From an uncultured Lachnospiraceae bacterium (lineage in GTDB: Bacteria > Bacillota > Clostridia > Lachnospirales > Lachnospiraceae), in the NCBI GenBank assembly GCA_905196345.1, contig CAJJVD010000003.1, positions 770 through 64,769 of the forward strand: a DNA stretch of 64,000 bases, in the 5' to 3' direction. Numbering within the stretch: the stretch's first letter is position 1; each line of letters opens with the position of its first letter. Position numbers and translations under genes: made by a program. Shown here one piece after another: positions 52,785 through 64,000 of this stretch. The notes beneath the pieces were generated by a model. It did no database searches. It was not told the DNA's origin and saw only the letters and a list, made by a program, of their open reading frames with translations.

Positions 52785-55400
52785 ATGAGTGAATTTTATC
52801 AAATGTCTGCGGAAGAAGTAAAGCAACAGATCAATGGAACTTTGGAACCGCTGACTGAAGAGCAGGTTCGGGCACATCAGGAAAAATATGGACCGAACGA
52901 ACTGGTAGAAGGGAAGAAGAAAACAACTCTTCAGATTTTTTTAGAGCAGTTTAAAGATTTTTTGGTTATTATTTTGATTTGTGCTGCAGTAGTATCCGGA
53001 TTTTTAGGAGATGCAGAAAGTACGATCGTAATTTTAATTGTTATTACAATTAATGCAATTTTGGGAACTGTACAGACAGTGAAAGCAGAACAATCTTTGG
53101 ATAGTCTGAAAAAACTTTCAGGTCCAGAGGCAAAAGTGCTGCGAGGTGGTTCTGTAGTACCGGTTCCGTCTTCAGAAGTAACGGTTGGAGATATTGTGAT
53201 GTTGGATGCCGGAGATTATATCCCAGCAGACGGACGTATTTTGGAATGCGCGAGCTTGAAGGTTGATGAGAGCGCACTGACCGGTGAAAGTCTTGGTGTA
53301 GAGAAAAATATAGATACAATCGGAAAAGAAGTACCTTTGGGCGACCGGGTAAATATGGTTTATTCCGGAAGTTTTGTAACTTACGGACGTGCATCCTTCC
53401 TTGTAACAGGCGTAGGAATGGAGACAGAGGTTGGTAAGATTGCGAGCTTGTTAAAGACAACTTCTGAAAAACGAACACCATTACAGATTAACTTAGATCA
53501 GTTTGGACAGAAATTGTCAATTATTATCTTAGTATTCTGTGGAATCTTATTTGGGGTAAACGTTCTAAGAGGCGGCAATATCGGAGATGCATTCCTATTT
53601 GCAGTAGCACTTGCAGTTGCAGCAATTCCGGAGGCACTTAGTTCTATCGTAACGATTGTTTTATCTTTCGGTACACAGAAGATGGCGAAAGAACATGCAA
53701 TTATCCGTAAGTTACAGGCGGTAGAAGGTCTGGGAAGTGTATCCATTATTTGTTCCGATAAGACCGGTACATTGACACAGAATAAGATGACAGTAGAAGA
53801 TTATTATGTAAATGATACAAGAATCCCGGTAGATGCGATTGATTTAAAAGATCAGGATGTGAATTTCTTACTTCTTTCCAGTATCTTGTGTAATGACTCT
53901 ACAAATGTAGATGGCGTGGAAATTGGTGATCCGACAGAGACTTGTTTGATTAATTTGGGAAGTAAGTTAGGTCTGTATGCACAGCAGGTTCGGGAACAGT
54001 ATCCGCGTGAAAGCGAGAACCCATTTGACAGTGATAGAAAATTAATGTCTACAAAGCATACAATCAATGGCATGCCGATGATGATTGTCAAAGGTGCGGT
54101 AGACGTATTGCTTGAAAGAATGACAAAAATCCGTATCAACGGTGAGGTTCGACCGATCACAGCAGAAGATCGGAAATTGATTGAGGCACAGAATCAGGAG
54201 TTCTCCAGAGAAGGTCTTCGTGTACTTGGTTTTGCATATAAAGAAGTGGCAGATGATTTGGAATTAAGTATTGAAGATGAGCAGGATCTTATTTTTATTG
54301 GTTTGATCGATATGATGGATCCGCCGAGAGAAGAATCCAAACAGGCGGTTGCAGAGTGTAAACGTGCCGGAATCCGTCCGATTATGATTACCGGCGATCA
54401 CAAGGTAACAGCAGCTGCAATTGCAAAACGTATTGGTATTCTTCAAGATGAGTCAGAGGCATGTGAAGGCGCTGAAATCGATTCATTGTCTGATGAAGAA
54501 CTGAAAGATTTTGTAGAAGGAATTTCCGTATATGCACGTGTGTCACCGGAACATAAGATTCGAATTGTACGTGCATGGCAGGAAAAAGGAAATATTGTTT
54601 CCATGACAGGTGATGGTGTCAATGATGCTCCGGCATTGAAACAGGCAGATATCGGTGTAGCAATGGGAATTACCGGAAGTGAAGTATCCAAAGATGCTGC
54701 ATCCATGGTATTGACAGATGATAATTTTGCAACCATTGTAAAGGCAGTTGAAAATGGACGAAATGTATACCGTAATATTAAGAACTCTATTCAGTTCTTG
54801 TTATCTGGTAACTTTGGTGCGATTCTGGCAGTATTATATGCCTCAATTGCAGGATTGCCGGTTCCGTTTGCTCCGGTACATTTGTTGTTCATCAATCTAT
54901 TGACAGATAGTTTGCCGGCGATTGCGTTGGGATTGGAACCGCATTCTAAAGATGTAATGGATGAAAAACCACGTCCGATGAATGAGTCAATTTTGACAAA
55001 AGATTTCCTGACCAAGATCGGAACAGAAGGTTTGTCAATCGGAATTACAACAATGATTGCATTTATGATTGGATACAAAGGCGGAAATGCAGTTCTTGCC
55101 AGCACAATGGCATTTGGAACACTTTGTACTGCACGTCTGGTACATGGATTTAACTGCAAAGAAGATAAACCTGTTATTTTTACAAACAAATTCTTCAATA
55201 ATATTTATTTGATCGGTGCATTCTTGATCGGATTTGTACTGATTACCTGCGTGATGACTGTGCCGTTCCTGCAGGGAATGTTTAAAGTACAGACATTAAC
55301 GTTAACACAACTTTTGATCGTATATGGACTCGCAGCAGCAAACCTGCCGATTATCCAGTTAATGAAAGCTGTGAAACAAGCATTTAAAAAGAAAAAATAA
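52785..55400 (+). CDS. P-type cation-transporting ATPase (P2A, Ca2+/Mn2+-type)
   Basis: DKTGTLT phosphorylation site, TGES actuator motif, GDGVNDAPAL hinge, 10 TM; 871 aa. Confidence 0.9.
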   Translation: MSEFYQMSAEEVKQQINGTLEPLTEEQVRAHQEKYGPNELVEGKKKTTLQIFLEQFKDFLVIILICAAVVSGFLGDAESTIVILIVITINAILGTVQTVKAEQSLDSLKKLSGPEAKVLRGGSVVPVPSSEVTVGDIVMLDAGDYIPADGRILECASLKVDESALTGESLGVEKNIDTIGKEVPLGDRVNMVYSGSFVTYGRASFLVTGVGMETEVGKIASLLKTTSEKRTPLQINLDQFGQKLSIIILVFCGILFGVNVLRGGNIGDAFLFAVALAVAAIPEALSSIVTIVLSFGTQKMAKEHAIIRKLQAVEGLGSVSIICSDKTGTLTQNKMTVEDYYVNDTRIPVDAIDLKDQDVNFLLLSSILCNDSTNVDGVEIGDPTETCLINLGSKLGLYAQQVREQYPRESENPFDSDRKLMSTKHTINGMPMMIVKGAVDVLLERMTKIRINGEVRPITAEDRKLIEAQNQEFSREGLRVLGFAYKEVADDLELSIEDEQDLIFIGLIDMMDPPREESKQAVAECKRAGIRPIMITGDHKVTAAAIAKRIGILQDESEACEGAEIDSLSDEELKDFVEGISVYARVSPEHKIRIVRAWQEKGNIVSMTGDGVNDAPALKQADIGVAMGITGSEVSKDAASMVLTDDNFATIVKAVENGRNVYRNIKNSIQFLLSGNFGAILAVLYASIAGLPVPFAPVHLLFINLLTDSLPAIALGLEPHSKDVMDEKPRPMNESILTKDFLTKIGTEGLSIGITTMIAFMIGYKGGNAVLASTMAFGTLCTARLVHGFNCKEDKPVIFTNKFFNNIYLIGAFLIGFVLITCVMTVPFLQGMFKVQTLTLTQLLIVYGLAAANLPIIQLMKAVKQAFKKKK

Positions 55401-55416
55401 TTTTGTATAAATAATC

Positions 55417-55466
55417 AAAAAACAGCAATTTTTCTGAAGTAAAGATCAGAAAGATTGCTGTTTTTG
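55417..55466. terminator. Bidirectional terminator between the convergent ATPase (+) and gatD (-)
   Basis: AAAAAACAGCAAT...ATTGCTGTTTTT with A/T runs on both sides. Confidence 0.65.
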
Positions 55467-55470
55467 CGTT

Positions 55471-56235
55471 TTAGGTATATCTTTTGATTGTTTCTTTCAA
55501 TACATATTTCTTATCGCTGTAGCGGTCTACGATGCAGCTGTTGGCTTTGTGTTCCAATTCATCCGGCAAAGGTTCTAAAGTAACGTTATCTCCGTATTTG
55601 CGTTTTAACGCGCGCTCCAACAGATAATCACATACGTGGGGGTTCTTTGGAAGGAGTGGTCCATGCAGGTAGGTTGCGATTACATTCTTGTATACAACGC
55701 CCTCATAACCGGATTTTCCGGTATTGCCAAGTCCAAAGAAGACTTTTCCAAATGGTGTATGGTCTCTGATGTAAGTACGTCCGCCATGATTTTCAAAACC
55801 GACAACAGGAGTGTCAAAAAGTGGGGAATTTAAAACAATATTTCGTATTAAACGTTCCGGTTCCCACTCAGTTGTAATATTTAAGATTCCCAGACCTTCA
55901 ATTAACTTATCTTTTGTTTTGTAGGATTTTCCGAGAAGTTGGTAACCGCCGCATACTGCGAGGACAACTCCGTTATTTTCTACATAATCTTTAAAATCGT
56001 CTTTAATTTCCAATAAATATTTACAAACAAGTTCTTGCTCCCGGTCAGAACCGCCGCCAAGTAATACAATATCCAGTTTCGAAAAATCGATTTTATCACC
56101 GGAAAGAAAAGGGATGACTTCTGCCTCCATTCCGCGCCATTCCAGACGTTTCCGGAAACACTGGATATTGCCTCGGTCGCCGTAGAGGTTCAAAAGGTCC
56201 GGATACAAATGTCCGATTGTTAATTTCATACTCAT
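55471..56235 (-). CDS. gatD: Lipid II isoglutaminyl synthase, glutamine amidotransferase subunit GatD (CobQ/CobB-type GATase)
   Basis: GATase1-like domain immediately downstream of murT. Confidence 0.75.
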   Translation of the reverse strand: MSMKLTIGHLYPDLLNLYGDRGNIQCFRKRLEWRGMEAEVIPFLSGDKIDFSKLDIVLLGGGSDREQELVCKYLLEIKDDFKDYVENNGVVLAVCGGYQLLGKSYKTKDKLIEGLGILNITTEWEPERLIRNIVLNSPLFDTPVVGFENHGGRTYIRDHTPFGKVFFGLGNTGKSGYEGVVYKNVIATYLHGPLLPKNPHVCDYLLERALKRKYGDNVTLEPLPDELEHKANSCIVDRYSDKKYVLKETIKRYT

Positions 56236-56238
56236 ACC

Positions 56239-57585
56239 TTAGTTCCCTCCTTTCTGTAACTCACTCAGCATATGATTGGTCCGGTATAAACCGGAATAGT
56301 TTACAATTACATATAGATTCTTTGTGCCGTTTGTTGTCAGATCAATAACCGATTGCTTTAAATCTGTTGTAGAATCACAAGAAATATCTTCGTATTTCAG
56401 GCGAAGTCCCATATCATGCCGCCGGGTTCCGTTGGTGAGGATTGTACTTACATTGGCATCCGCCAGATACTGGAAGTCTACATCCCAGAGCCAGGAAACA
56501 TCTTCGCCATCCTGATAAGTGTCATTAATCTGAATGATGACATCCTTTGGATTTGGATCTTTCAGTACGAGAGAGATCTTCTGCTGGAAACCGATTGGAT
56601 TTTTTGCCAGATGGAGCTGGACACGTGCGCCATTGATGGTGTAAATATCCTCCCGGTTATTGCCGTAATCAAAGGATTCGATTGTTGATTTAAAACGCTC
56701 TGTAGGTGCCTCCATTGCACAAAGTGCAGCGTATGCAGAAAGTGTATTGTATATATTATATGGAGTACGAGATGAGGAATCAATTTTTACGCCGTCAATT
56801 GTAAAGGAATAGACTTCGTTGTGGAAAATAATGTCAGTGGCAGTATAATCCGGTTCAGGTCTTTTCATCCCACAATTCGGGCAATGATAGATTCCCAATT
56901 GTCCATAATGGAAGAAATCATATTCTAATTTTTTTCCACAGGAACGGCAGAAAATACTTTCCCGAATCTCAGAACGGGAAATATCATCGAAGATTTGTTC
57001 ACTGATTCCGTAAGTAACAAATGGATTCTTTCCCTCAGAGGCAAGTGAATAGGAAAGAACATCATCACAATTGATAATGAGTTTTGTATTCGGGGAGCTA
57101 TGAAAGGCATCCCGAACAGCGTTATATGTGATGTCAACTTCGCCAAAACGATCCAACTGATCCCGACAAATGTTAGTCAGCAGTGCACAATCAGGCTGTA
57201 GTTGCGGCAATACCTTCAGAGAGGCAAATTCATCCACTTCAATGCAGGCGTAATCAGCATCCAGATTCCCTTTTTTGTCAGTAGAAAGTACAAAAGCAGA
57301 AATAATTCCGTTTAACATATTAGCGCCGGTACGGTTGATGATGACTTCTTTCCCTTCTGCTGCCAGTGCATGGTACAAAATACTGTTTGTTGTTGTTTTT
57401 CCATTTGTTCCCATAGTAACGATTGTTTTTTCACGCACCATGTCAGACATCGTACTTAAAATCTTAGGATCAATGATACGTGCAACGTAACCTGGAAGGG
57501 TAACGCCACTTCCCCGGTTCATTTTTTTAATCAGTGTGCTTGTCATTTTCGCACATTTAATAGCAAGTTTACTTCTTAATCTCAT
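56239..57585 (-). CDS. murT: Lipid II isoglutaminyl synthase, Mur-ligase-like subunit MurT
   Basis: Mur ligase central domain (GTNGKTTT), Cys4 zinc ribbon (CRSCG...CPNCG), DUF1727 C-terminus. Confidence 0.8.
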   Translation of the reverse strand: MRLRSKLAIKCAKMTSTLIKKMNRGSGVTLPGYVARIIDPKILSTMSDMVREKTIVTMGTNGKTTTNSILYHALAAEGKEVIINRTGANMLNGIISAFVLSTDKKGNLDADYACIEVDEFASLKVLPQLQPDCALLTNICRDQLDRFGEVDITYNAVRDAFHSSPNTKLIINCDDVLSYSLASEGKNPFVTYGISEQIFDDISRSEIRESIFCRSCGKKLEYDFFHYGQLGIYHCPNCGMKRPEPDYTATDIIFHNEVYSFTIDGVKIDSSSRTPYNIYNTLSAYAALCAMEAPTERFKSTIESFDYGNNREDIYTINGARVQLHLAKNPIGFQQKISLVLKDPNPKDVIIQINDTYQDGEDVSWLWDVDFQYLADANVSTILTNGTRRHDMGLRLKYEDISCDSTTDLKQSVIDLTTNGTKNLYVIVNYSGLYRTNHMLSELQKGGN

Positions 57586-57795
57586 GTGTTTTACTCTTTT
57601 ACTTTCTTTAATATTATTGAATGAAAATATATAAATAGTATTTGAAATACCTGTATTATTATAAGTGATATCTGGTAATAAAACAAGAAATATATCATTT
57701 TTTACTATGAGTAAATATTTCTACATGTTATACTAATCATACTGAGATCTGTTAGAATAAATACTGTGGGATAGATAGAAAAGGAGTATATGAAT

Positions 57796-57900
57796 ATGAG
57801 TAAAATTAAGGATGAGGCAAGAAAACGCGGTTTGGATCCCAATGAGTTTTCCAGTGCGGCAATCAGACGGTGTGGTCTGGCACAAGGGAAAATCTTGTGA
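57796..57900 (+). CDS. Small hypothetical protein (34 aa), basic C-terminus
   Basis: AAGGAG RBS 9 nt upstream of the ATG; MSKIKDEARKRGLDPNEFSSAAIRRCGLAQGKIL; no recognisable family. Confidence 0.3.
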   Translation: MSKIKDEARKRGLDPNEFSSAAIRRCGLAQGKIL

Positions 57901-58052
57901 AAAAGGGAAAAACAACCAGTTTGAAGGGGTTAAAAAAGACGTTGTTTACAAAGCAGGCACAATGGGTGTTCGAAATGAAGGTAGTGGAGAGTACGGATGA
58001 AGACATAAAAAATAACAGTTATAACAATTATAAGAATCGGAGGAAAATAAAA

Positions 58053-59021
58053 ATGAGCAGAAAAATTAAATGGGGCGTGCTGGGAACAGCCAATATTGCA
58101 AGAAAGTGTACAATTCCGGGAATGAAAAAGGCAAAGAATTGTCAGCTCTATGGAATTGCAGGACGTAATAAAGAAAAAGTAGATCAGTTTCAGGAAGAAT
58201 TTGGGTTTGAAAAGGCCTATTACTCTTTGGAGGAGATGCTGGATGATCCGGAAATAGAGGCAGTATATATTCCACTTCCAAATACGCTGCATAAGGAGTG
58301 GGTACTCAAAGCAGCAGCGAAAGGAAAGCATATTTTATGTGAGAAACCATTGTCCGGAACGGAAAAAGATGTCAGAGAAATGATTGAAGGATGTGAAAAA
58401 GCAGGCGTTGTATTTATGGAGGCATTTGCATATTTACATAGTCCGCTGGTTACTTCTGTAAAGGAAACTTTGAAGTCCGGCGTAATTGGAAAACTTTCTT
58501 TTATGGAATCTATTTTTATTACTCCGGGATATACTGCAGAAAACATCCGGGTTCGTCGAGATACACTGGGCGGTTCTATCTATGACCTGGGATGTTACTG
58601 TACAAGCCTGATGCTTACACTTTTTGAAGAAGAGCCAAAAGAAGTAAAGGCAGTGGGACATTTTACAGAACAGCACATTGATGATTTTGCATCGGCATAT
58701 TTCCATTTCGATGATGAGCGTAGGGCGTGTATGGTATCCGGAATGTGTTCCGCACAGCGAGGCGATCGTTTCTACCTTTATGGAACAGAGGGAACCATGG
58801 AAGTACCGGTGTCATTCAATGCAGATGGGGAATTGCATTATTATGTAAAAAAGGGCGATACTTGTCAGGAAATCAAAGTGGATGCACCGGATAACTATTG
58901 TCTGGAAGTAGAACAATTAGGGGAATGTATTCTTGAAGGTGCAGCTCCTCATGTGGCACATGAATTTTCTTTACAAAATGCACGTGTAATGGATAAAATA
59001 TTAAATGAAATCGGATATTAA
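58053..59021 (+). CDS. Gfo/Idh/MocA family NAD(P)-dependent oxidoreductase
   Basis: N-terminal Rossmann GVLGTANIA; EKP motif; C-terminal alpha/beta domain; GGAGG RBS; track ORF has a 61-aa upstream extension. Confidence 0.8.
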   Translation: MSRKIKWGVLGTANIARKCTIPGMKKAKNCQLYGIAGRNKEKVDQFQEEFGFEKAYYSLEEMLDDPEIEAVYIPLPNTLHKEWVLKAAAKGKHILCEKPLSGTEKDVREMIEGCEKAGVVFMEAFAYLHSPLVTSVKETLKSGVIGKLSFMESIFITPGYTAENIRVRRDTLGGSIYDLGCYCTSLMLTLFEEEPKEVKAVGHFTEQHIDDFASAYFHFDDERRACMVSGMCSAQRGDRFYLYGTEGTMEVPVSFNADGELHYYVKKGDTCQEIKVDAPDNYCLEVEQLGECILEGAAPHVAHEFSLQNARVMDKILNEIGY

Positions 59022-59035
59022 AAGGAGTATAGAGG

Positions 59036-59749
59036 ATGGATGTGAAATCAATTCGTATGGATTGTACGAGAACAGAATTTGTAGGGACTGCGGTTCTTGA
59101 TACCATCGGACTTGTGATTCCGGGAGTCGATGATACTTTATTGGATAAAATGAATGTGGGAAAGAAGTACCATGCTCTTGGTTTGTTCAGTTCCAGAACC
59201 GGAGCGGCAGGTCAGTTTACCGCATTGGATGATGCTGTGAAGGCGACAAACACAGAGGTGTTAAGTATTGAACTACCGAGAGATACAAAAGGCTGGGGCG
59301 GCCATGGAAATTATGTGGTGCTTGGCGGAAATGATGTATCAGATGTACGGGATGCCATTCAGATGGCATTGGATCTGACCAATAAATATGCAGGAGAATT
59401 ATATATCAGTGAAGCCGGTCATCTGGAATTTGCTTATTCCGCAAGTGCGGGAGATGTTTTGCAGAAAGCCTTTGGAGCGAAAAAAGACAAAGCGTTTGGA
59501 TTCCTTGCAGGGTCGCCTGCTGCCATTGGATTGGTTATGGCAGATACTGCCGTGAAAGCATCAAATGTTGAAATCATAAATTACATGACACCGGACAAAG
59601 GAACCAGTCATTCGAATGAAGTGATCTTGGCATTTTCCGGAGATGCAAGCGCAGTAAAAGCGGCTGTTTTGGAGGCAAGACAGATTGGATTAGAACTGCT
59701 TATTGCGATGGGAAGTTACCCTGAGATACCGGGAACACCATATTTGTGA
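59036..59749 (+). CDS. PduB-like tandem-BMC-domain (BMC-T) microcompartment shell protein
   Basis: From recall, collinear with Salmonella PduB (EFVGTA..DT.GLVI..VD..LLD ... DEAVKATNTEV.SIELPRDTKG..GHG....GGNDVSDV ... GFLAGSPAAIGLVMADTA.K..NVE); 14 nt after the oxidoreductase gene. Confidence 0.75.
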   Translation: MDVKSIRMDCTRTEFVGTAVLDTIGLVIPGVDDTLLDKMNVGKKYHALGLFSSRTGAAGQFTALDDAVKATNTEVLSIELPRDTKGWGGHGNYVVLGGNDVSDVRDAIQMALDLTNKYAGELYISEAGHLEFAYSASAGDVLQKAFGAKKDKAFGFLAGSPAAIGLVMADTAVKASNVEIINYMTPDKGTSHSNEVILAFSGDASAVKAAVLEARQIGLELLIAMGSYPEIPGTPYL

Positions 59750-59801
59750 GTGGCGAAGTAAAATAAATGAAGTTTGTATTAGTATATTGAGGTGGAGCGA
59801 A

Positions 59802-60800
59802 ATGCCAAAGGGAATGAATCAGAAATTCAAGTTGTACCGTCTTGCGGAAATTATGTTGGAAATGACAGACGAGGAACACTATATTACAATGCCGGAAATT
59901 CTAACTGCTCTTGAGCAATATGAGATACACGCAGATCGTAAGACAATTTATAATGACTTAAGAGATTTGGAAGTATTAGGGATTGAAGTAGAGGGCGAGG
60001 CAGTGGGAAAAGGGTATCATTATCATGTTGTAAATCGTCCATTTGAACTTCCGGAATTAAAACTTTTGGTAGATGCAATTCAGTCCTCAAAATTTATTAC
60101 AGAGAGAAAAACGAATACTTTGATTAAAAAGCTGGAAAAACTGTTGAGTAAATATGAGGCGATGCAGTTGCAGCGACAAGTATTTGTAACCGGAAGAATT
60201 AAGACAATGAATGAAAGCATTTATTATACTGTAGATGCAATTCATAATGCAATTTCCGAGAATCGGAAAATCTATTTCCATTATTTTCAGTGGAATGTAA
60301 AGAAGGAGATGGAACTTCGCAGAGGCGGGGAGTATTATCATATTAGTCCATGGGGGCTTTCATGGGATGATGAGAATTACTATCTCATAGGTTACGATTC
60401 TGAAACAGAACAGATCAAGCATTATCGAGTGGATAAGATGCTCCATATTCAGATGTCAGAGGAAAAAAGAGAAGGAAAAGAACATTTCAAAAAACTAGAT
60501 TTGGCAGAGTATGCGAAAAAGAGTTTTGGGATGTTCCGAGGAGAAGAATATCAAGTAAAACTGCGGGTGGAAAATCATTTGGCAGGAGTTATTATAGACC
60601 GTTTCGGAAAAGATGTGATGATGATTCCGGTAGATGAGGAACATTTTACAGTAAATGTGAATGTACATGTCAGCAAACAATTTCTGGCATGGGTAATTTC
60701 TATCGGAGAGGGAATTGAAATTCTTTCTCCGGAAGAAGTGGTACAGAATATGCGGAGGGAGATAGAACGATTAAATCGACAGTATCACATAGAAAAATAA
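59802..60800 (+). CDS. HTH-WYL-WCX domain transcriptional regulator
   Basis: N-terminal winged HTH (YRLAEIMLEM), central WYL domain (EYYHISPWGLSWDDENYYLIGYD), C-terminal WCX-like domain. Confidence 0.75.
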   Translation: MPKGMNQKFKLYRLAEIMLEMTDEEHYITMPEILTALEQYEIHADRKTIYNDLRDLEVLGIEVEGEAVGKGYHYHVVNRPFELPELKLLVDAIQSSKFITERKTNTLIKKLEKLLSKYEAMQLQRQVFVTGRIKTMNESIYYTVDAIHNAISENRKIYFHYFQWNVKKEMELRRGGEYYHISPWGLSWDDENYYLIGYDSETEQIKHYRVDKMLHIQMSEEKREGKEHFKKLDLAEYAKKSFGMFRGEEYQVKLRVENHLAGVIIDRFGKDVMMIPVDEEHFTVNVNVHVSKQFLAWVISIGEGIEILSPEEVVQNMRREIERLNRQYHIEK

Positions 60801-60848
60801 TAGAGCATATTAAAAAGAGAATATTATAAAAGTTAAGGAGGAGAAATT

Positions 60849-61493
60849 TTGGAGTTTTGGAAAGAGGTCTTTTCTCTCTATGCAGAGCGGAAAGATTGGT
60901 TTGTTCAGTTGATTCTGGAGCATCTGGGGCTGTCTTTGATTGCAATTTGTCTTGCCGGAACAATTGGACTGTTTTTAGGAATTTGGATTTCTGAACATGA
61001 ATGGGCGGCAGCGCCGGTATTGGGGATTGCAAATATCTTCTATACAGTTCCGGCAATTTCATTATTAGGCATGTTGATTCCGCTCTTGGGAATTGGAAAT
61101 ACAACGGCTGTAGCCGCATTAACAATATATGGAATTATGCCAATGGTAAGGAATACTTATGCCGGAATCAAAGGTGTCAGTACAGAAATTATCAGTGCAG
61201 CGGAAGGAATGGGAAGTACCAGATTCCAGATGATGATGAAGATAAAACTACCGTTGGCATTGGGTGTAATTCTCGCGGGAATCCGGAATATGGTGGTGAT
61301 GACCATTTCCGTAGCTGCAATTGCGTCTTTTATTGGCGCAGGCGGTCTTGGTGTTGCAATTTACCGGGGAATTACAATGTACGACACAGCAATGACATTT
61401 GGCGGCAGCTTTTTAATTGCTCTGATTGCTTTAATCAGCGATTGGATTCTGGGGGGATTAGAAAAATATATTAAGAAGAGGAGAAAAATGTAA
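60849..61493 (+). CDS. ABC transporter permease, glycine betaine/choline/carnitine (OpuBB/OpuCB-like)
   Basis: BPD-transporter permease with the EAA-like motif of the osmoprotectant uptake family. Confidence 0.75.
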   Translation: MEFWKEVFSLYAERKDWFVQLILEHLGLSLIAICLAGTIGLFLGIWISEHEWAAAPVLGIANIFYTVPAISLLGMLIPLLGIGNTTAVAALTIYGIMPMVRNTYAGIKGVSTEIISAAEGMGSTRFQMMMKIKLPLALGVILAGIRNMVVMTISVAAIASFIGAGGLGVAIYRGITMYDTAMTFGGSFLIALIALISDWILGGLEKYIKKRRKM

Positions 61494-61494
61494 G

Positions 61495-62430
61495 ATGAAA
61501 TACTGGAAAAGAGGAATTGCTTTGTTCTTGGCAGGAACAATGATGTTTGCGATTGGCGGATGTGGAAAAACTGAAAAGGATACGGAAAAGAGTACAGCAA
61601 AGAATACAGAACCAATTAAAATTGCTACAAAACCAATGACAGAACAGTATATTCTTGGTGAAATATTAAAACAACTGATTGAGGATAAGACAGAGTATAA
61701 AGTAGAAGTTACAGCAGGAATTGGCGGCGGAACAAGCAATATTCATCCGGCAATGGAAAAAGGGGAATTTGATCTGTATCCGGAATATACCGCCAGTGGA
61801 TGGGTCATGGTTCTTGGACACGAGGCAGGGGAAGTATCGGAAGATAAAATTTTTGAGGAACTGAAAAAAGAATATCAGGATAAATTTCAGATGACCTGGG
61901 TTGGATTGTATGGATTTAATAACACGTATGCACTTGCGGTTCGAAAGGATGTTGCAGATCAATATCAGTTGAAAACATGTTCGGATCTGGCAGAAGTGTC
62001 CGGAAATCTGGTGTTTGGTGGCAATCCGGATTATATTGAGCGGGAAGATGGATTCCAAGGCGTATGTAAAGCCTACGGTATGGAATTTTCCAAGGTAAAA
62101 GATATTGATATTGGATTGAAATATAAGGCGATGGAAAAAGGGGATATTGACGTGACGAACGGATTTACTACAGATGCTCAGATATCACGTGATGATGTAG
62201 TCGTATTAGAAGATGACAAACAGTATCAGGTGAATTATTTCTGTTCTACAGTGGTTAGAGAAGATGCGTTGAAAAAATACCCGAAATTAGAAGAAACATT
62301 GATGCTGATGGATGGGATATTATCTGATCAGGAAATGGCGGAGATGAACTATCAGGTAGAAGTGGAAGGAAAAGATGAAACCCAAGTTGCAAAAGCATTT
62401 CTGATAGAAAAGGGACTGATCAAGGAGTAA
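61495..62430 (+). CDS. ABC transporter substrate-binding lipoprotein, glycine betaine/choline-binding (OpuBC/OpuCC-like)
   Basis: Lipobox AIGGC; OpuAC-fold similarity. Confidence 0.75.
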   Translation: MKYWKRGIALFLAGTMMFAIGGCGKTEKDTEKSTAKNTEPIKIATKPMTEQYILGEILKQLIEDKTEYKVEVTAGIGGGTSNIHPAMEKGEFDLYPEYTASGWVMVLGHEAGEVSEDKIFEELKKEYQDKFQMTWVGLYGFNNTYALAVRKDVADQYQLKTCSDLAEVSGNLVFGGNPDYIEREDGFQGVCKAYGMEFSKVKDIDIGLKYKAMEKGDIDVTNGFTTDAQISRDDVVVLEDDKQYQVNYFCSTVVREDALKKYPKLEETLMLMDGILSDQEMAEMNYQVEVEGKDETQVAKAFLIEKGLIKE

Positions 62431-62434
62431 CAAC

Positions 62435-63178
62435 ATGGAAATGATTCGATTGGAACATGTTACAAAAAGTTTTGATAACCAGAAAGTATTGGACGATTTT
62501 TCCATTTCCATTGAAGAAGGAGAATTTTTAACTGTAATCGGTCGCTCCGGATGTGGGAAAACGACAATGTTAAAAACAATTAACGGACTGCATCGGCCAG
62601 AGCAAGGCAAGGTGTATGTAGAAGGAAAAGACATCAGCAAAGAGGATCTGATTGCAGTTCGAAGAAAGATTGGATATGTGATACAAAATAAAGGGCTCTT
62701 TCCTCATATGACTGTTGAAAAAAATATCACTTATGTTCCGGTTATCAGCGGAAAAAAAGAGAAAAAGGCAAATCACGAGCTGGCGTGTAGATTAATCAAA
62801 ACAGTGGGATTAGATCCTGCCATGCTGTCACGCTATCCCTCTGAATTATCCGGAGGACAACAGCAGCGAGTGGGGATTGCCCGGGCACTTGCGGCGGATG
62901 CTAAGATTTTATTGATGGACGAGCCATTTGGTGCTTTGGATGAAATTACAAAACAGGCAATGCAGGATGAGATTTTAAATTTGCAAAAAAAACTGGGAAT
63001 TACCATTGTATTCATTACGCATGATATTCGAGAGGCGATGAAACTGGGCAGCCGGGTTCTGGTGATGGACAAAGGGAAAATCGTGCAGTTAGATACACCT
63101 GAAAAAATAAAAAACGAGCCGGTGAATGAGTTTGTATATCAATTAGTGGGACAGAATTTAGAGAATATAATCGAATAA
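62435..63178 (+). CDS. ABC transporter ATP-binding protein (osmoprotectant type, lacking C-terminal CBS domains)
   Basis: Walker A GRSGCGKTT, signature LSGGQQQRV, Walker B LLMDEP; only 247 aa. Confidence 0.8.
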   Translation: MEMIRLEHVTKSFDNQKVLDDFSISIEEGEFLTVIGRSGCGKTTMLKTINGLHRPEQGKVYVEGKDISKEDLIAVRRKIGYVIQNKGLFPHMTVEKNITYVPVISGKKEKKANHELACRLIKTVGLDPAMLSRYPSELSGGQQQRVGIARALAADAKILLMDEPFGALDEITKQAMQDEILNLQKKLGITIVFITHDIREAMKLGSRVLVMDKGKIVQLDTPEKIKNEPVNEFVYQLVGQNLENIIE

Positions 63179-63192
63179 CATGATACTTAGGG

Positions 63193-64000
63193 GGAGAGCG
63201 AGATGAAAAAACAAGTAATGAATGCAACTATTTTAATATTGTGCCTGCCGCAGTTTGCGGTGGGCTTATTTACAACCATGCTCAATAATTATTTGATCTA
63301 TTTTTATCAGCCATCCAAAGAATCAGGATTGCCAAATTTAATTCCGCAAGGAGTTATAGTGCTTGGAGTTTTAACTGTTATTGGATTTATCAAAGCAATC
63401 GGACATATTATTGATGCAGTTACGGATCCTTTGATTGCTTCGAAAAGTGACCGTAGTCAAAATAAACATGGTAGAAGAATACCAATGATGCGCTGGGCGG
63501 CAATTCCGTTTGGACTATGTGCGTTATTGATTTTCTGCGTTCCTTTTCAAAAAATTTCAGTGGGAAATGCGATTTGGATTGCAGTGTTTATGTGGGGGTA
63601 TTATTTGTTTTATACACTTTATATGATCCCCCATACAGCTCTAATTCCAGAAATGATACAAGAAAATGGAATGCGTGTGAATACCTATACATGGAGTTCC
63701 TTTTTCTTTGTAACGGGAAGTGCAGTTGGTTATGCAACGCCTGCTATTGTAAGTATTTGGAAAAGTTCTGGTATGCAGGCGGTATCTGCTTGGAGAATGA
63801 CATTTGCGATTTATACGATAATCGGAATTATTTTACTATTGATTCCTGCTTTTTCCATTTGTGAAAAGGACTATGTAGCATCTGTAATACCGGGTATTTC
63901 ACTTAAAGAATCATTGAAACATGCTTTTTCGAATCAACATTTTCGGATTGTCACACTAGGACAATTGTTAGAAAATACAGGGATGGCATTCTTTCAAGCG
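63193..64000 (+). CDS. GPH-family (glycoside-pentoside-hexuronide:cation symporter, MelB/YihO-like) MFS transporter, 3'-truncated by the window end
   Basis: Manual translation open to the window end; conserved DPLIASKSDRSQNKHGRRIP loop-2 motif of GPH transporters; absent from the ORF track because there is no stop. Confidence 0.7.

Follow-up and report, generated by a model that had tools for sequence, protein, structure and literature searches.

A solitary PduB-type shell gene in an uncultured Lachnospiraceae bacterium, probably a satellite of a propanediol-type microcompartment

Described here is a solitary gene for a PduB-type shell protein of bacterial microcompartments (BMCs) in the genome of an uncultured Lachnospiraceae bacterium (GenBank assembly GCA_905196345.1). 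The gene lies within a stretch of 64,000 nucleotides (contig CAJJVD010000003.1, positions 770 to 64,769, forward strand), referred to throughout as the window, and coordinates are those of the window unless a locus number is given. It is a real and intact shell gene that stands alone among unrelated genes. Its elements are as follows.

59036-59749, plus strand: pduB-type gene with an ATG start, encoding a 237-residue BMC-T(sp) shell protein of the short PduB' form
59156-59410, plus strand: first BMC domain, about residues 41-125 (limits approximate), which holds D65/K69 and the loop R82-G91
59294-59296, plus strand: TGG codon of Trp87, within the motif PRDTKG-W-GGHG
59471-59725, plus strand: second BMC domain, about residues 146-230 (limits approximate), which holds D170/K174

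Two stretches of the 237-residue protein match the Pfam BMC family PF00936 (E 2.2e-25), the better of which covers residues 153-218. The cutoffs of two NCBIfam models are passed, namely TIGR04501, microcomp_PduB (349.7 bits, cutoff 310), and NF011944 (316 bits, cutoff 173), with profile positions 39-268 of the latter being covered. The scores against the EutL model TIGR04502 (47.4 bits, cutoff 300) and the PduT model (27.8 bits, cutoff 250) are far under their thresholds. There is an in-frame TAG at position 59030, 6 nt before the pduB ATG, and a longer N-terminus is therefore ruled out. Given this stop codon and a match to NF011944 that begins only at profile position 39, the protein is of the short PduB' form. 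It lacks the N-terminal extension of full-length PduB, a segment that in the Salmonella protein has been proposed to link the shell to the core.

The closest solved structures by sequence are those of Lactobacillus reuteri PduB (4FAY, E 9e-64) and Clostridium kluyveri EtuB (3IO0, E 5e-62). An AlphaFold2 model of the monomer, with a predicted local distance difference test (pLDDT) score of 82 and a predicted template modeling (TM) score of 0.79, displays two α/β BMC repeats. In a Foldseek search the best structural match to this model was EtuB (TM 0.85/0.88), followed by L. reuteri PduB in the entries 4I61 (0.83/0.86) and 4FAY (0.82/0.86), all with E values of ~1e-24. The EutL structures of ethanolamine BMCs (3I82, 3I87, 4EDI), which are likewise BMC-T(sp) proteins and belong to the same fold class, gave poorer TM scores of about 0.65-0.75. 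The sequence identity to EutL is only about 20%, and given also the low TIGR04502 score the protein is no EutL.

Both domains carry the Asp/Lys pair of the tile edge. In local alignments D22/K26 of PduA fall onto D65/K69 in the first domain and onto D170/K174 in the second, and K69, D170 and K174 are invariant across the solitary PduBs described below and the canonical PduBs aligned with them. The tile-edge motif is needed for tiling, and the role of Lys-26 in it is taken from the literature (PMC4139245). The ratio of nonsynonymous to synonymous substitution (dN/dS) for pduB is 0.02-0.06 in comparisons with the corresponding loci of other genomes, which are cited here by number (L001 onward): 0.023 against L006, a metagenome-assembled genome (MAG) of a sister species, 0.029 against L007, a Faecalimonas, and ~0.05 against Blautia. 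Ratios this low show the gene to be functional and under strong purifying selection.

When compared with the PduBs of L. reuteri (4FAY, 4I61), Salmonella, Listeria and Ilyobacter, the protein shows the same tandem permuted BMC domains and 47-54% identity over its full length, with TM scores of 0.82-0.86. The Asp/Lys tile-edge motifs are shared with the canonical proteins, as is most of the DTKG..GHG loop. Two features set the solitary proteins apart. The canonical, locus-embedded PduBs (Salmonella plasmid, Listeria, Ilyobacter) begin with an N-terminal extension of 30-37 residues and have Gly at the position of Trp87, whereas the solitary clade has neither. Indeed, Trp87 is invariant in 79 unique sequences of the clade and in 131 of 132 database relatives, and Gly occupies the position in L. 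reuteri PduB (4FAY), in EtuB and in the Salmonella, Listeria and Ilyobacter PduBs. With a pLDDT of 52 (residues 81-90), the loop surrounding Trp87 has the lowest confidence of any internal segment of the model. It aligns with EutL residues about 69-83 and presumably lies at the trimer axis, in the pore region. Note that further differences, A104V, G163A, S185T and S204A, are fixed in the clade at positions where 4FAY and EtuB agree.

EtuB resembles the solitary protein more closely in its build, having a similar length, 46% identity and no long N-terminal extension. It differs in its Gly at the Trp87 position and in the setting of its gene, an ethanol-utilization locus that also holds genes for aldehyde and alcohol dehydrogenases and in which it lies beside the BMC-H gene EtuA. 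The three canonical pduB genes examined lie inside main loci, next to pduA and/or a diol dehydratase or glycyl-radical enzyme. The arrangement is pduA-pduB-glycyl-radical enzyme on the Salmonella plasmid and pduA-pduB-pduCDE in Listeria, and the third locus compared was that of Ilyobacter. The pduB of the window, in contrast, is solitary, and its immediate neighbors on the same strand are the following.

58053-59021, plus strand: gene for a Gfo/Idh/MocA NAD(P)-dependent oxidoreductase of 322 residues, directly upstream of pduB
58970-58999, plus strand: promoter-like site TTTACA-18-TAAAAT within the 3'-terminal part of the oxidoreductase gene, a possible pduB promoter
59022-59035, plus strand: junction of 14 nt, AAGGAGTATAGAGG, between the TAA of the oxidoreductase gene and the pduB ATG, with a strong ribosome-binding site inside
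59808-60800, plus strand: gene for a WYL/WCX-domain regulator (PF13280, PF25583), a neighbor of pduB only in the window and in L001-L006

The upstream protein matches PF01408, the N-terminal Rossmann domain (E 3.2e-26), PF22725 (7.8e-21) and PF02894 (6.6e-13). All substrate-specific NCBIfam equivalogs score far under their cutoffs with this protein, the best being a xylose dehydrogenase model at 117.7 versus 350 bits. Beyond the WYL/WCX regulator come genes for an ATP-binding cassette (ABC) permease, an OpuAC binding protein and an ABC ATPase, such that the OpuAC cluster lies within 2 kb of pduB. In the contigs with an identical PduB, which extend beyond the window end, these are followed by an MFS_2/GPH symporter, an M20 peptidase, a small Fer2 ferredoxin and a TetR regulator.

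The precomputed Pfam matches within ±10 kb of pduB in five contigs encoding an identical PduB contained no further shell gene, and tblastn with PduA, EutM and EutN revealed none either. A search of all six frames of the 64-kb window with BMC-H and BMC-P profile hidden Markov models (HMMs), for which the Listeria pdu locus served as a positive control (E<=1e-40), returned a single match, namely PduB itself. The layout given in the original prediction, which was made from the letters and their open reading frames without database searches, is thus borne out: a PduB' protein of 237 residues at 59036-59749, by its two PF00936 matches, the two NCBIfam models and the fold; its position 14 nt after a Gfo/Idh/MocA gene, by the reading-frame coordinates and the Pfam domains; the absence of BMC-H and BMC-P genes, here throughout the window and for 10 kb beyond pduB; and the WYL regulator, OpuAC-type ABC transporter and GPH symporter downstream, by their Pfam matches. 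Nor does a complete BMC locus, which would make the gene an ordinary locus member, follow shortly after the window end, as far as about 10 kb beyond pduB.

Relatives of the protein form a dense set at 81-99% identity. A scan of species-representative genomes yielded 318 PduB relatives, the best 80 of which (78-98% identical) were used as species-level loci. Together with five conspecific contigs from metagenomes they constitute the 85 loci of the comparison (78-100% identity). The best 80 include a Lachnospiraceae MAG at 98% and Faecalimonas at 89-90%, as well as Blautia, Robinsoniella, Murimonas, Fusicatenibacter, Oliverpabstia and others. The very same protein sequence recurs across many metagenomes and is indexed in 116 collection blocks. 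At none of the 85 loci did tblastn or the profile HMMs detect a BMC-H or BMC-P gene within ±10 kb. The label "orphan" that had been given to the gene is therefore correct with respect to its own locus and misleading as a statement of rarity, for all 85 related loci are equally solitary.

The neighbors of the solitary pduB are lineage-specific and of a housekeeping kind, among them GlgC/D-like proteins, SpoVG, a MurC-type ligase, BioY, galactokinase and the T2SSE/T2SSF proteins of type II/IV secretion. In the Faecalimonas loci pduB lies between a gene of cluster 11 and the type II/IV secretion genes, and the gene of the window has moved from that position. A recurrent context in Blautia consists of genes for a PcsB-like coiled-coil protein, SpoVG, two GlgC/D-like proteins and a Mur ligase. 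This Blautia-type context (clusters 2-, 10-, 1-, 1-) is also seen in records titled Ruminococcus bicirculans, Eggerthellaceae bacterium and Prevotella sp. CAG:279 (L064, L066 and L085), and these contigs have probably been mis-binned in the MAGs concerned. Many of the loci L012-L085 display a sigma-70-like promoter of their own, TTGAC(A/T)...TATACT-like, together with a hairpin followed by a T-run; upstream promoters of this kind can be seen in L013, L031 and L037, and downstream hairpins in L022, L028 and L079. On these sequence features the solitary pduB usually looks like a free-standing monocistronic unit. A conserved regulatory element travelling upstream of pduB was also considered and rejected: apart from the ribosome-binding site, the upstream DNA is unrelated between lineages.

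A satellite BMC locus, as defined by Axen (2014) and equivalently by Sutter (2021), has an incomplete shell complement (PF00936 only or PF03319 only, with no pair of BMC-H and BMC-P), its shell genes are contiguous, and at least one main BMC locus occurs elsewhere in the genome. The lone BMC-T gene of the window is both an incomplete complement and a contiguous one. The etu locus formally fits the definition too. In the BMC-T(sp) tree of Sutter et al. 2021 (Nat Commun 12:3809, Supplementary Data 4) there is a pduB clade, "chartreuse3," with members of 237-238 residues as a rule (two are longer) from Blautia, Ruminococcus and Clostridium-labelled gut isolates and MAGs, with labels of up to "54seqs_id80." Each member carries the tag "(sat)" and one of the types GRM5, GRM5like, PDU1D_GRM5 or "incomplete," with none assigned to GRM1 or GRM2. 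Clade chartreuse2 is all satellite as well; the types found in the two clades are GRM5, GRM5like, PDU1D, PDU1D_GRM5 and incomplete, again never GRM1 or GRM2. The sister clade chartreuse4, with 241-242 residues, contains a mixture of main and satellite members of type GRM5. In the main text of the catalogue chartreuse3 goes undiscussed (Sutter 2021).

The protein of the window shares with chartreuse3 the usual length, the pduB annotation, the taxa and the solitary arrangement, and the match is drawn from these features rather than from aligned catalogue sequences. What is specific to the species at hand, relative to chartreuse3, is the Gfo gene upstream and the WYL and OpuAC genes downstream. 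The existing catalogue thus already lists the solitary gut Lachnospiraceae PduBs among the satellites of propanediol and fucose/rhamnose BMCs. Main loci have been described in three relatives: GRM5like main-locus shell proteins in Murimonas intestini DSM 26524, the genome of L037, and GRM5like and EUT2I main loci in a Robinsoniella genome (both Sutter 2021), and a contiguous BMC block (pegs 1852-1864) with two BMC-associated pathways in Ruminococcus sp. 5_1_39BFAA, the genome of L047 (Ravcheev 2019). In addition, pduC has been reported in Faecalimonas MAGs. The catalogue tags and the main loci of these relatives lend indirect support to a main BMC locus in the present genome, and the catalogue labels and the Faecalimonas pduC suggest its type.

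On the basis of this evidence, the gene is likely to be a satellite shell gene that contributes a PduB tile to a propanediol-type metabolosome encoded elsewhere in the genome. A satellite serving a BMC elsewhere had been put forward in the original prediction, and it is the best-supported reading of the locus, with indirect support from the catalogue tags and the main loci of the three relatives. In such a role the protein would form trimers that become tiles in the shell facets. Judged by the catalogue labels, the metabolosome would be of the GRM5, GRM5-like or PDU1D kind, in which fucose or rhamnose is converted to 1,2-propanediol and then to propionaldehyde, and whose signature enzymes are PduCDE or a glycyl-radical diol dehydratase with a class II aldolase. 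In L. reuteri PduB glycerol is bound in three intra-subunit channels and the central pore is closed, and the present protein might by analogy supply channels for diols and other small molecules; EutL, on the other hand, has a central pore on its three-fold axis that occurs in open and closed forms. Without the N-terminal extension, by which Salmonella PduB has been proposed to hold shell and cargo together, the protein would probably serve as a tile and pore rather than as a cargo anchor.

In this species pduB probably shares a transcript with the Gfo gene or has a promoter of its own within the last part of that gene. Cotranscription is plausible from the sequence because the two genes are separated by only 14 nt, with no terminator-like site found between them. 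The internal promoter-like site scored 10/12 in a consensus scan in which the count of such sites in the region was not above the shuffled expectation. Across positions 55000-64000 Rfam returned no regulatory RNA or riboswitch at E<=0.1. Detached encoding of satellite shell genes has been proposed to permit their separate regulation (Sutter 2021), and by analogy it may do so here. The logic is that of CcmK3/CcmK4 of the β-carboxysomes, which are obligately encoded apart from the main locus in an arrangement thought to allow separate regulation and the tuning of shell permeability. The likeness to a detached pduB with its own promoter is a conceptual analogy only, for CcmK3/CcmK4 are BMC-H hexamers of an anabolic cyanobacterial compartment and are unrelated to the PduB of the window in lineage and function.

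Several points weigh against assigning the gene to a satellite of this kind. The satellite status of the gene, and with it the putative main BMC locus of this genome, is drawn from the clade as a whole. One catalogued member of the clade is labelled "incomplete (sat)," with no complete main locus found in that genome (Sutter 2021). The replacement of Gly by Trp87 in an otherwise conserved loop and the missing N-terminal extension mean that the exact role in the shell could differ from that of canonical PduB. Finally, the trimerization of the protein, its incorporation into a shell and the transcription of its gene are predictions.

These same features lead to a second reading, in which the solitary PduBs are a specialized shell component, either a constitutive tile shared by two BMC types (PDU and GRM5) of one cell, with altered pore gating, or a protein with a BMC-independent function. 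It is suggested because the clade lacks a cargo-linking N-terminus, carries an invariant Trp in a loop of the pore region and never occurs within a BMC operon, the gene in many cases having a promoter to itself in housekeeping surroundings. This specialization is regarded as unlikely.

More doubtful still is the suggestion, made in the original prediction, of a shell protein that now serves a non-BMC role together with the Gfo/Idh/MocA oxidoreductase. In such a role it might act as a scaffold or sheet for this enzyme or its pathway. The two genes lie on the same strand with the short, terminator-free gap noted above, the sister MAG L006 retains the pair, purifying selection acts on both genes (dN/dS 0.03-0.07 for the Gfo gene), and the clade is always detached from BMC genes. 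When the co-occurrence of the pair was checked across related genomes, however, it was confined to this species and L006. Indeed, the combination of Gfo upstream and WYL/OpuAC downstream occurs only in the window, the five conspecific metagenome contigs and L006, and the pairing is missing from 78 of the 80 species-level loci. Behind the genes for Gfo orthologues at 83% and 64% identity lie unrelated genes rather than pduB; the contig of a third, at 79%, stops right after the gene. In a second lineage, represented by two MAGs, a Gfo/Idh/MocA gene does lie 72-76 nt upstream of the solitary pduB on the same strand (L060 8950-9924, L070 8511-9521). This gene is a different paralogue, 27% identical to the Gfo of the window. 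Gfo-family genes make up about 0.5-0.7% of the flanking genes, and across ~51 distinct upstream contexts ~0.25 such adjacencies are expected by chance, so that the second lineage was dismissed as evidence of a non-random association. The tile-edge residues are moreover conserved as in shell formers, and the catalogue groups the clade with main BMC loci. Because the pairing is confined to the species and its sister MAG, because Gfo orthologues occur without PduB and because the second lineage is within chance expectation, the adjacency appears to be incidental, a local rearrangement without evident functional meaning, and a joint role for the two proteins is very improbable.

The original prediction had also raised the possibility of a choline-utilizing, glycyl-radical type of BMC (GRM1 or GRM2) that the gene would serve as a satellite. 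This was prompted by the transporter downstream, whose binding protein, permease and ATPase genes all lie within 2 kb of pduB, and PduB-type genes do adjoin glycyl-radical enzymes, as in the pduA-pduB-glycyl-radical protein array of an enterobacterial plasmid. OpuAC-family binding proteins are, however, general compatible-solute importers, and the OpuAC cluster adjoins PduB only in this species and in L006. Among the genes called within ±10 kb of pduB there is none resembling CutC, the choline TMA-lyase, or its activase CutD. The catalogue labels point the same way, given that chartreuse3 and chartreuse2 members are never typed GRM1 or GRM2, and the choline assignment has scarcely any likelihood left. 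Least credible of all is a leftover from a lineage whose main BMC locus is gone. The lack of other BMC genes in 69 kb of contiguous sequence, the "incomplete" clade member and the move from the Faecalimonas position would be in keeping with a shell gene persisting without a compartment, but the reading frame is intact with a strong ribosome-binding site, the identical protein recurs in the many metagenomes noted above, and dN/dS is 0.02-0.03 against the sister species and Faecalimonas. Such conservation is not expected of a functionless gene, and on these ratios a pseudogene or relic was rejected.

For the window itself the satellite assignment matters little, since its gene adds one to a class already catalogued. 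More generally, where pduB stands alone in the genome or MAG of a Lachnospiraceae, it should be taken neither for a BMC locus nor for a novel orphan, nor as a hint at what its neighbors do, and marker-gene surveys in which pduB serves as a proxy for a BMC locus would pick up the detached gene. The pattern of the clade, always detached, without the N-terminal extension and with an invariant Trp87, is apparently undiscussed in the literature searched. It could provide a useful case of satellite shell proteins that tune shell permeability in abundant gut commensals.

Several further observations were made in the course of the comparisons. The Salmonella array referred to above resides on a conjugative IncHI2 plasmid of Salmonella Senftenberg (L092, NZ_CP029037.1, 91579-95261), where pduA and pduB are directly followed by a gene for a glycyl-radical protein, and thus represents a GRM-type BMC module on a mobile element. 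Equal-scoring PduB matches, at 53.2% identity, occur on plasmids of Enterobacter, Citrobacter and Kosakonia. No Lachnospiraceae BMC was found in the plasmid collection, and a scan of viral contigs with PduA gave only a Salmonella-like locus. The plasmid collection also includes records of 2-5 Mb (Escherichia coli, Klebsiella, Listeria, Fusobacterium, Acetoanaerobium and Proteus) that resemble whole chromosomes entered under plasmids.

At the locus itself, the genes that follow pduB in this species form a same-strand run of WYL/WCX regulator, OpuAC-type ABC transporter, MFS_2/GPH symporter, M20 peptidase and a 2Fe-2S ferredoxin of 86 residues (window 59808-63178; L001 10767-17166), and this run is not linked to pduB in other species. 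The small upstream open reading frames examined are of a housekeeping nature (YlxR, L7Ae, RbfA, S15, SpoIIIAC and Asp23). Finally, there is a strain polymorphism upstream of the Gfo gene. L001, L003 and L005 contain a gene for a 164-residue ATC_hydrolase (PF14196), whereas the window, L002 and L004 are missing 84 and 190 bp of it, with gaps in the window after 57809 and 58003 (window 57586-58052 versus L001 8276-9017), and retain short open reading frames in its place.

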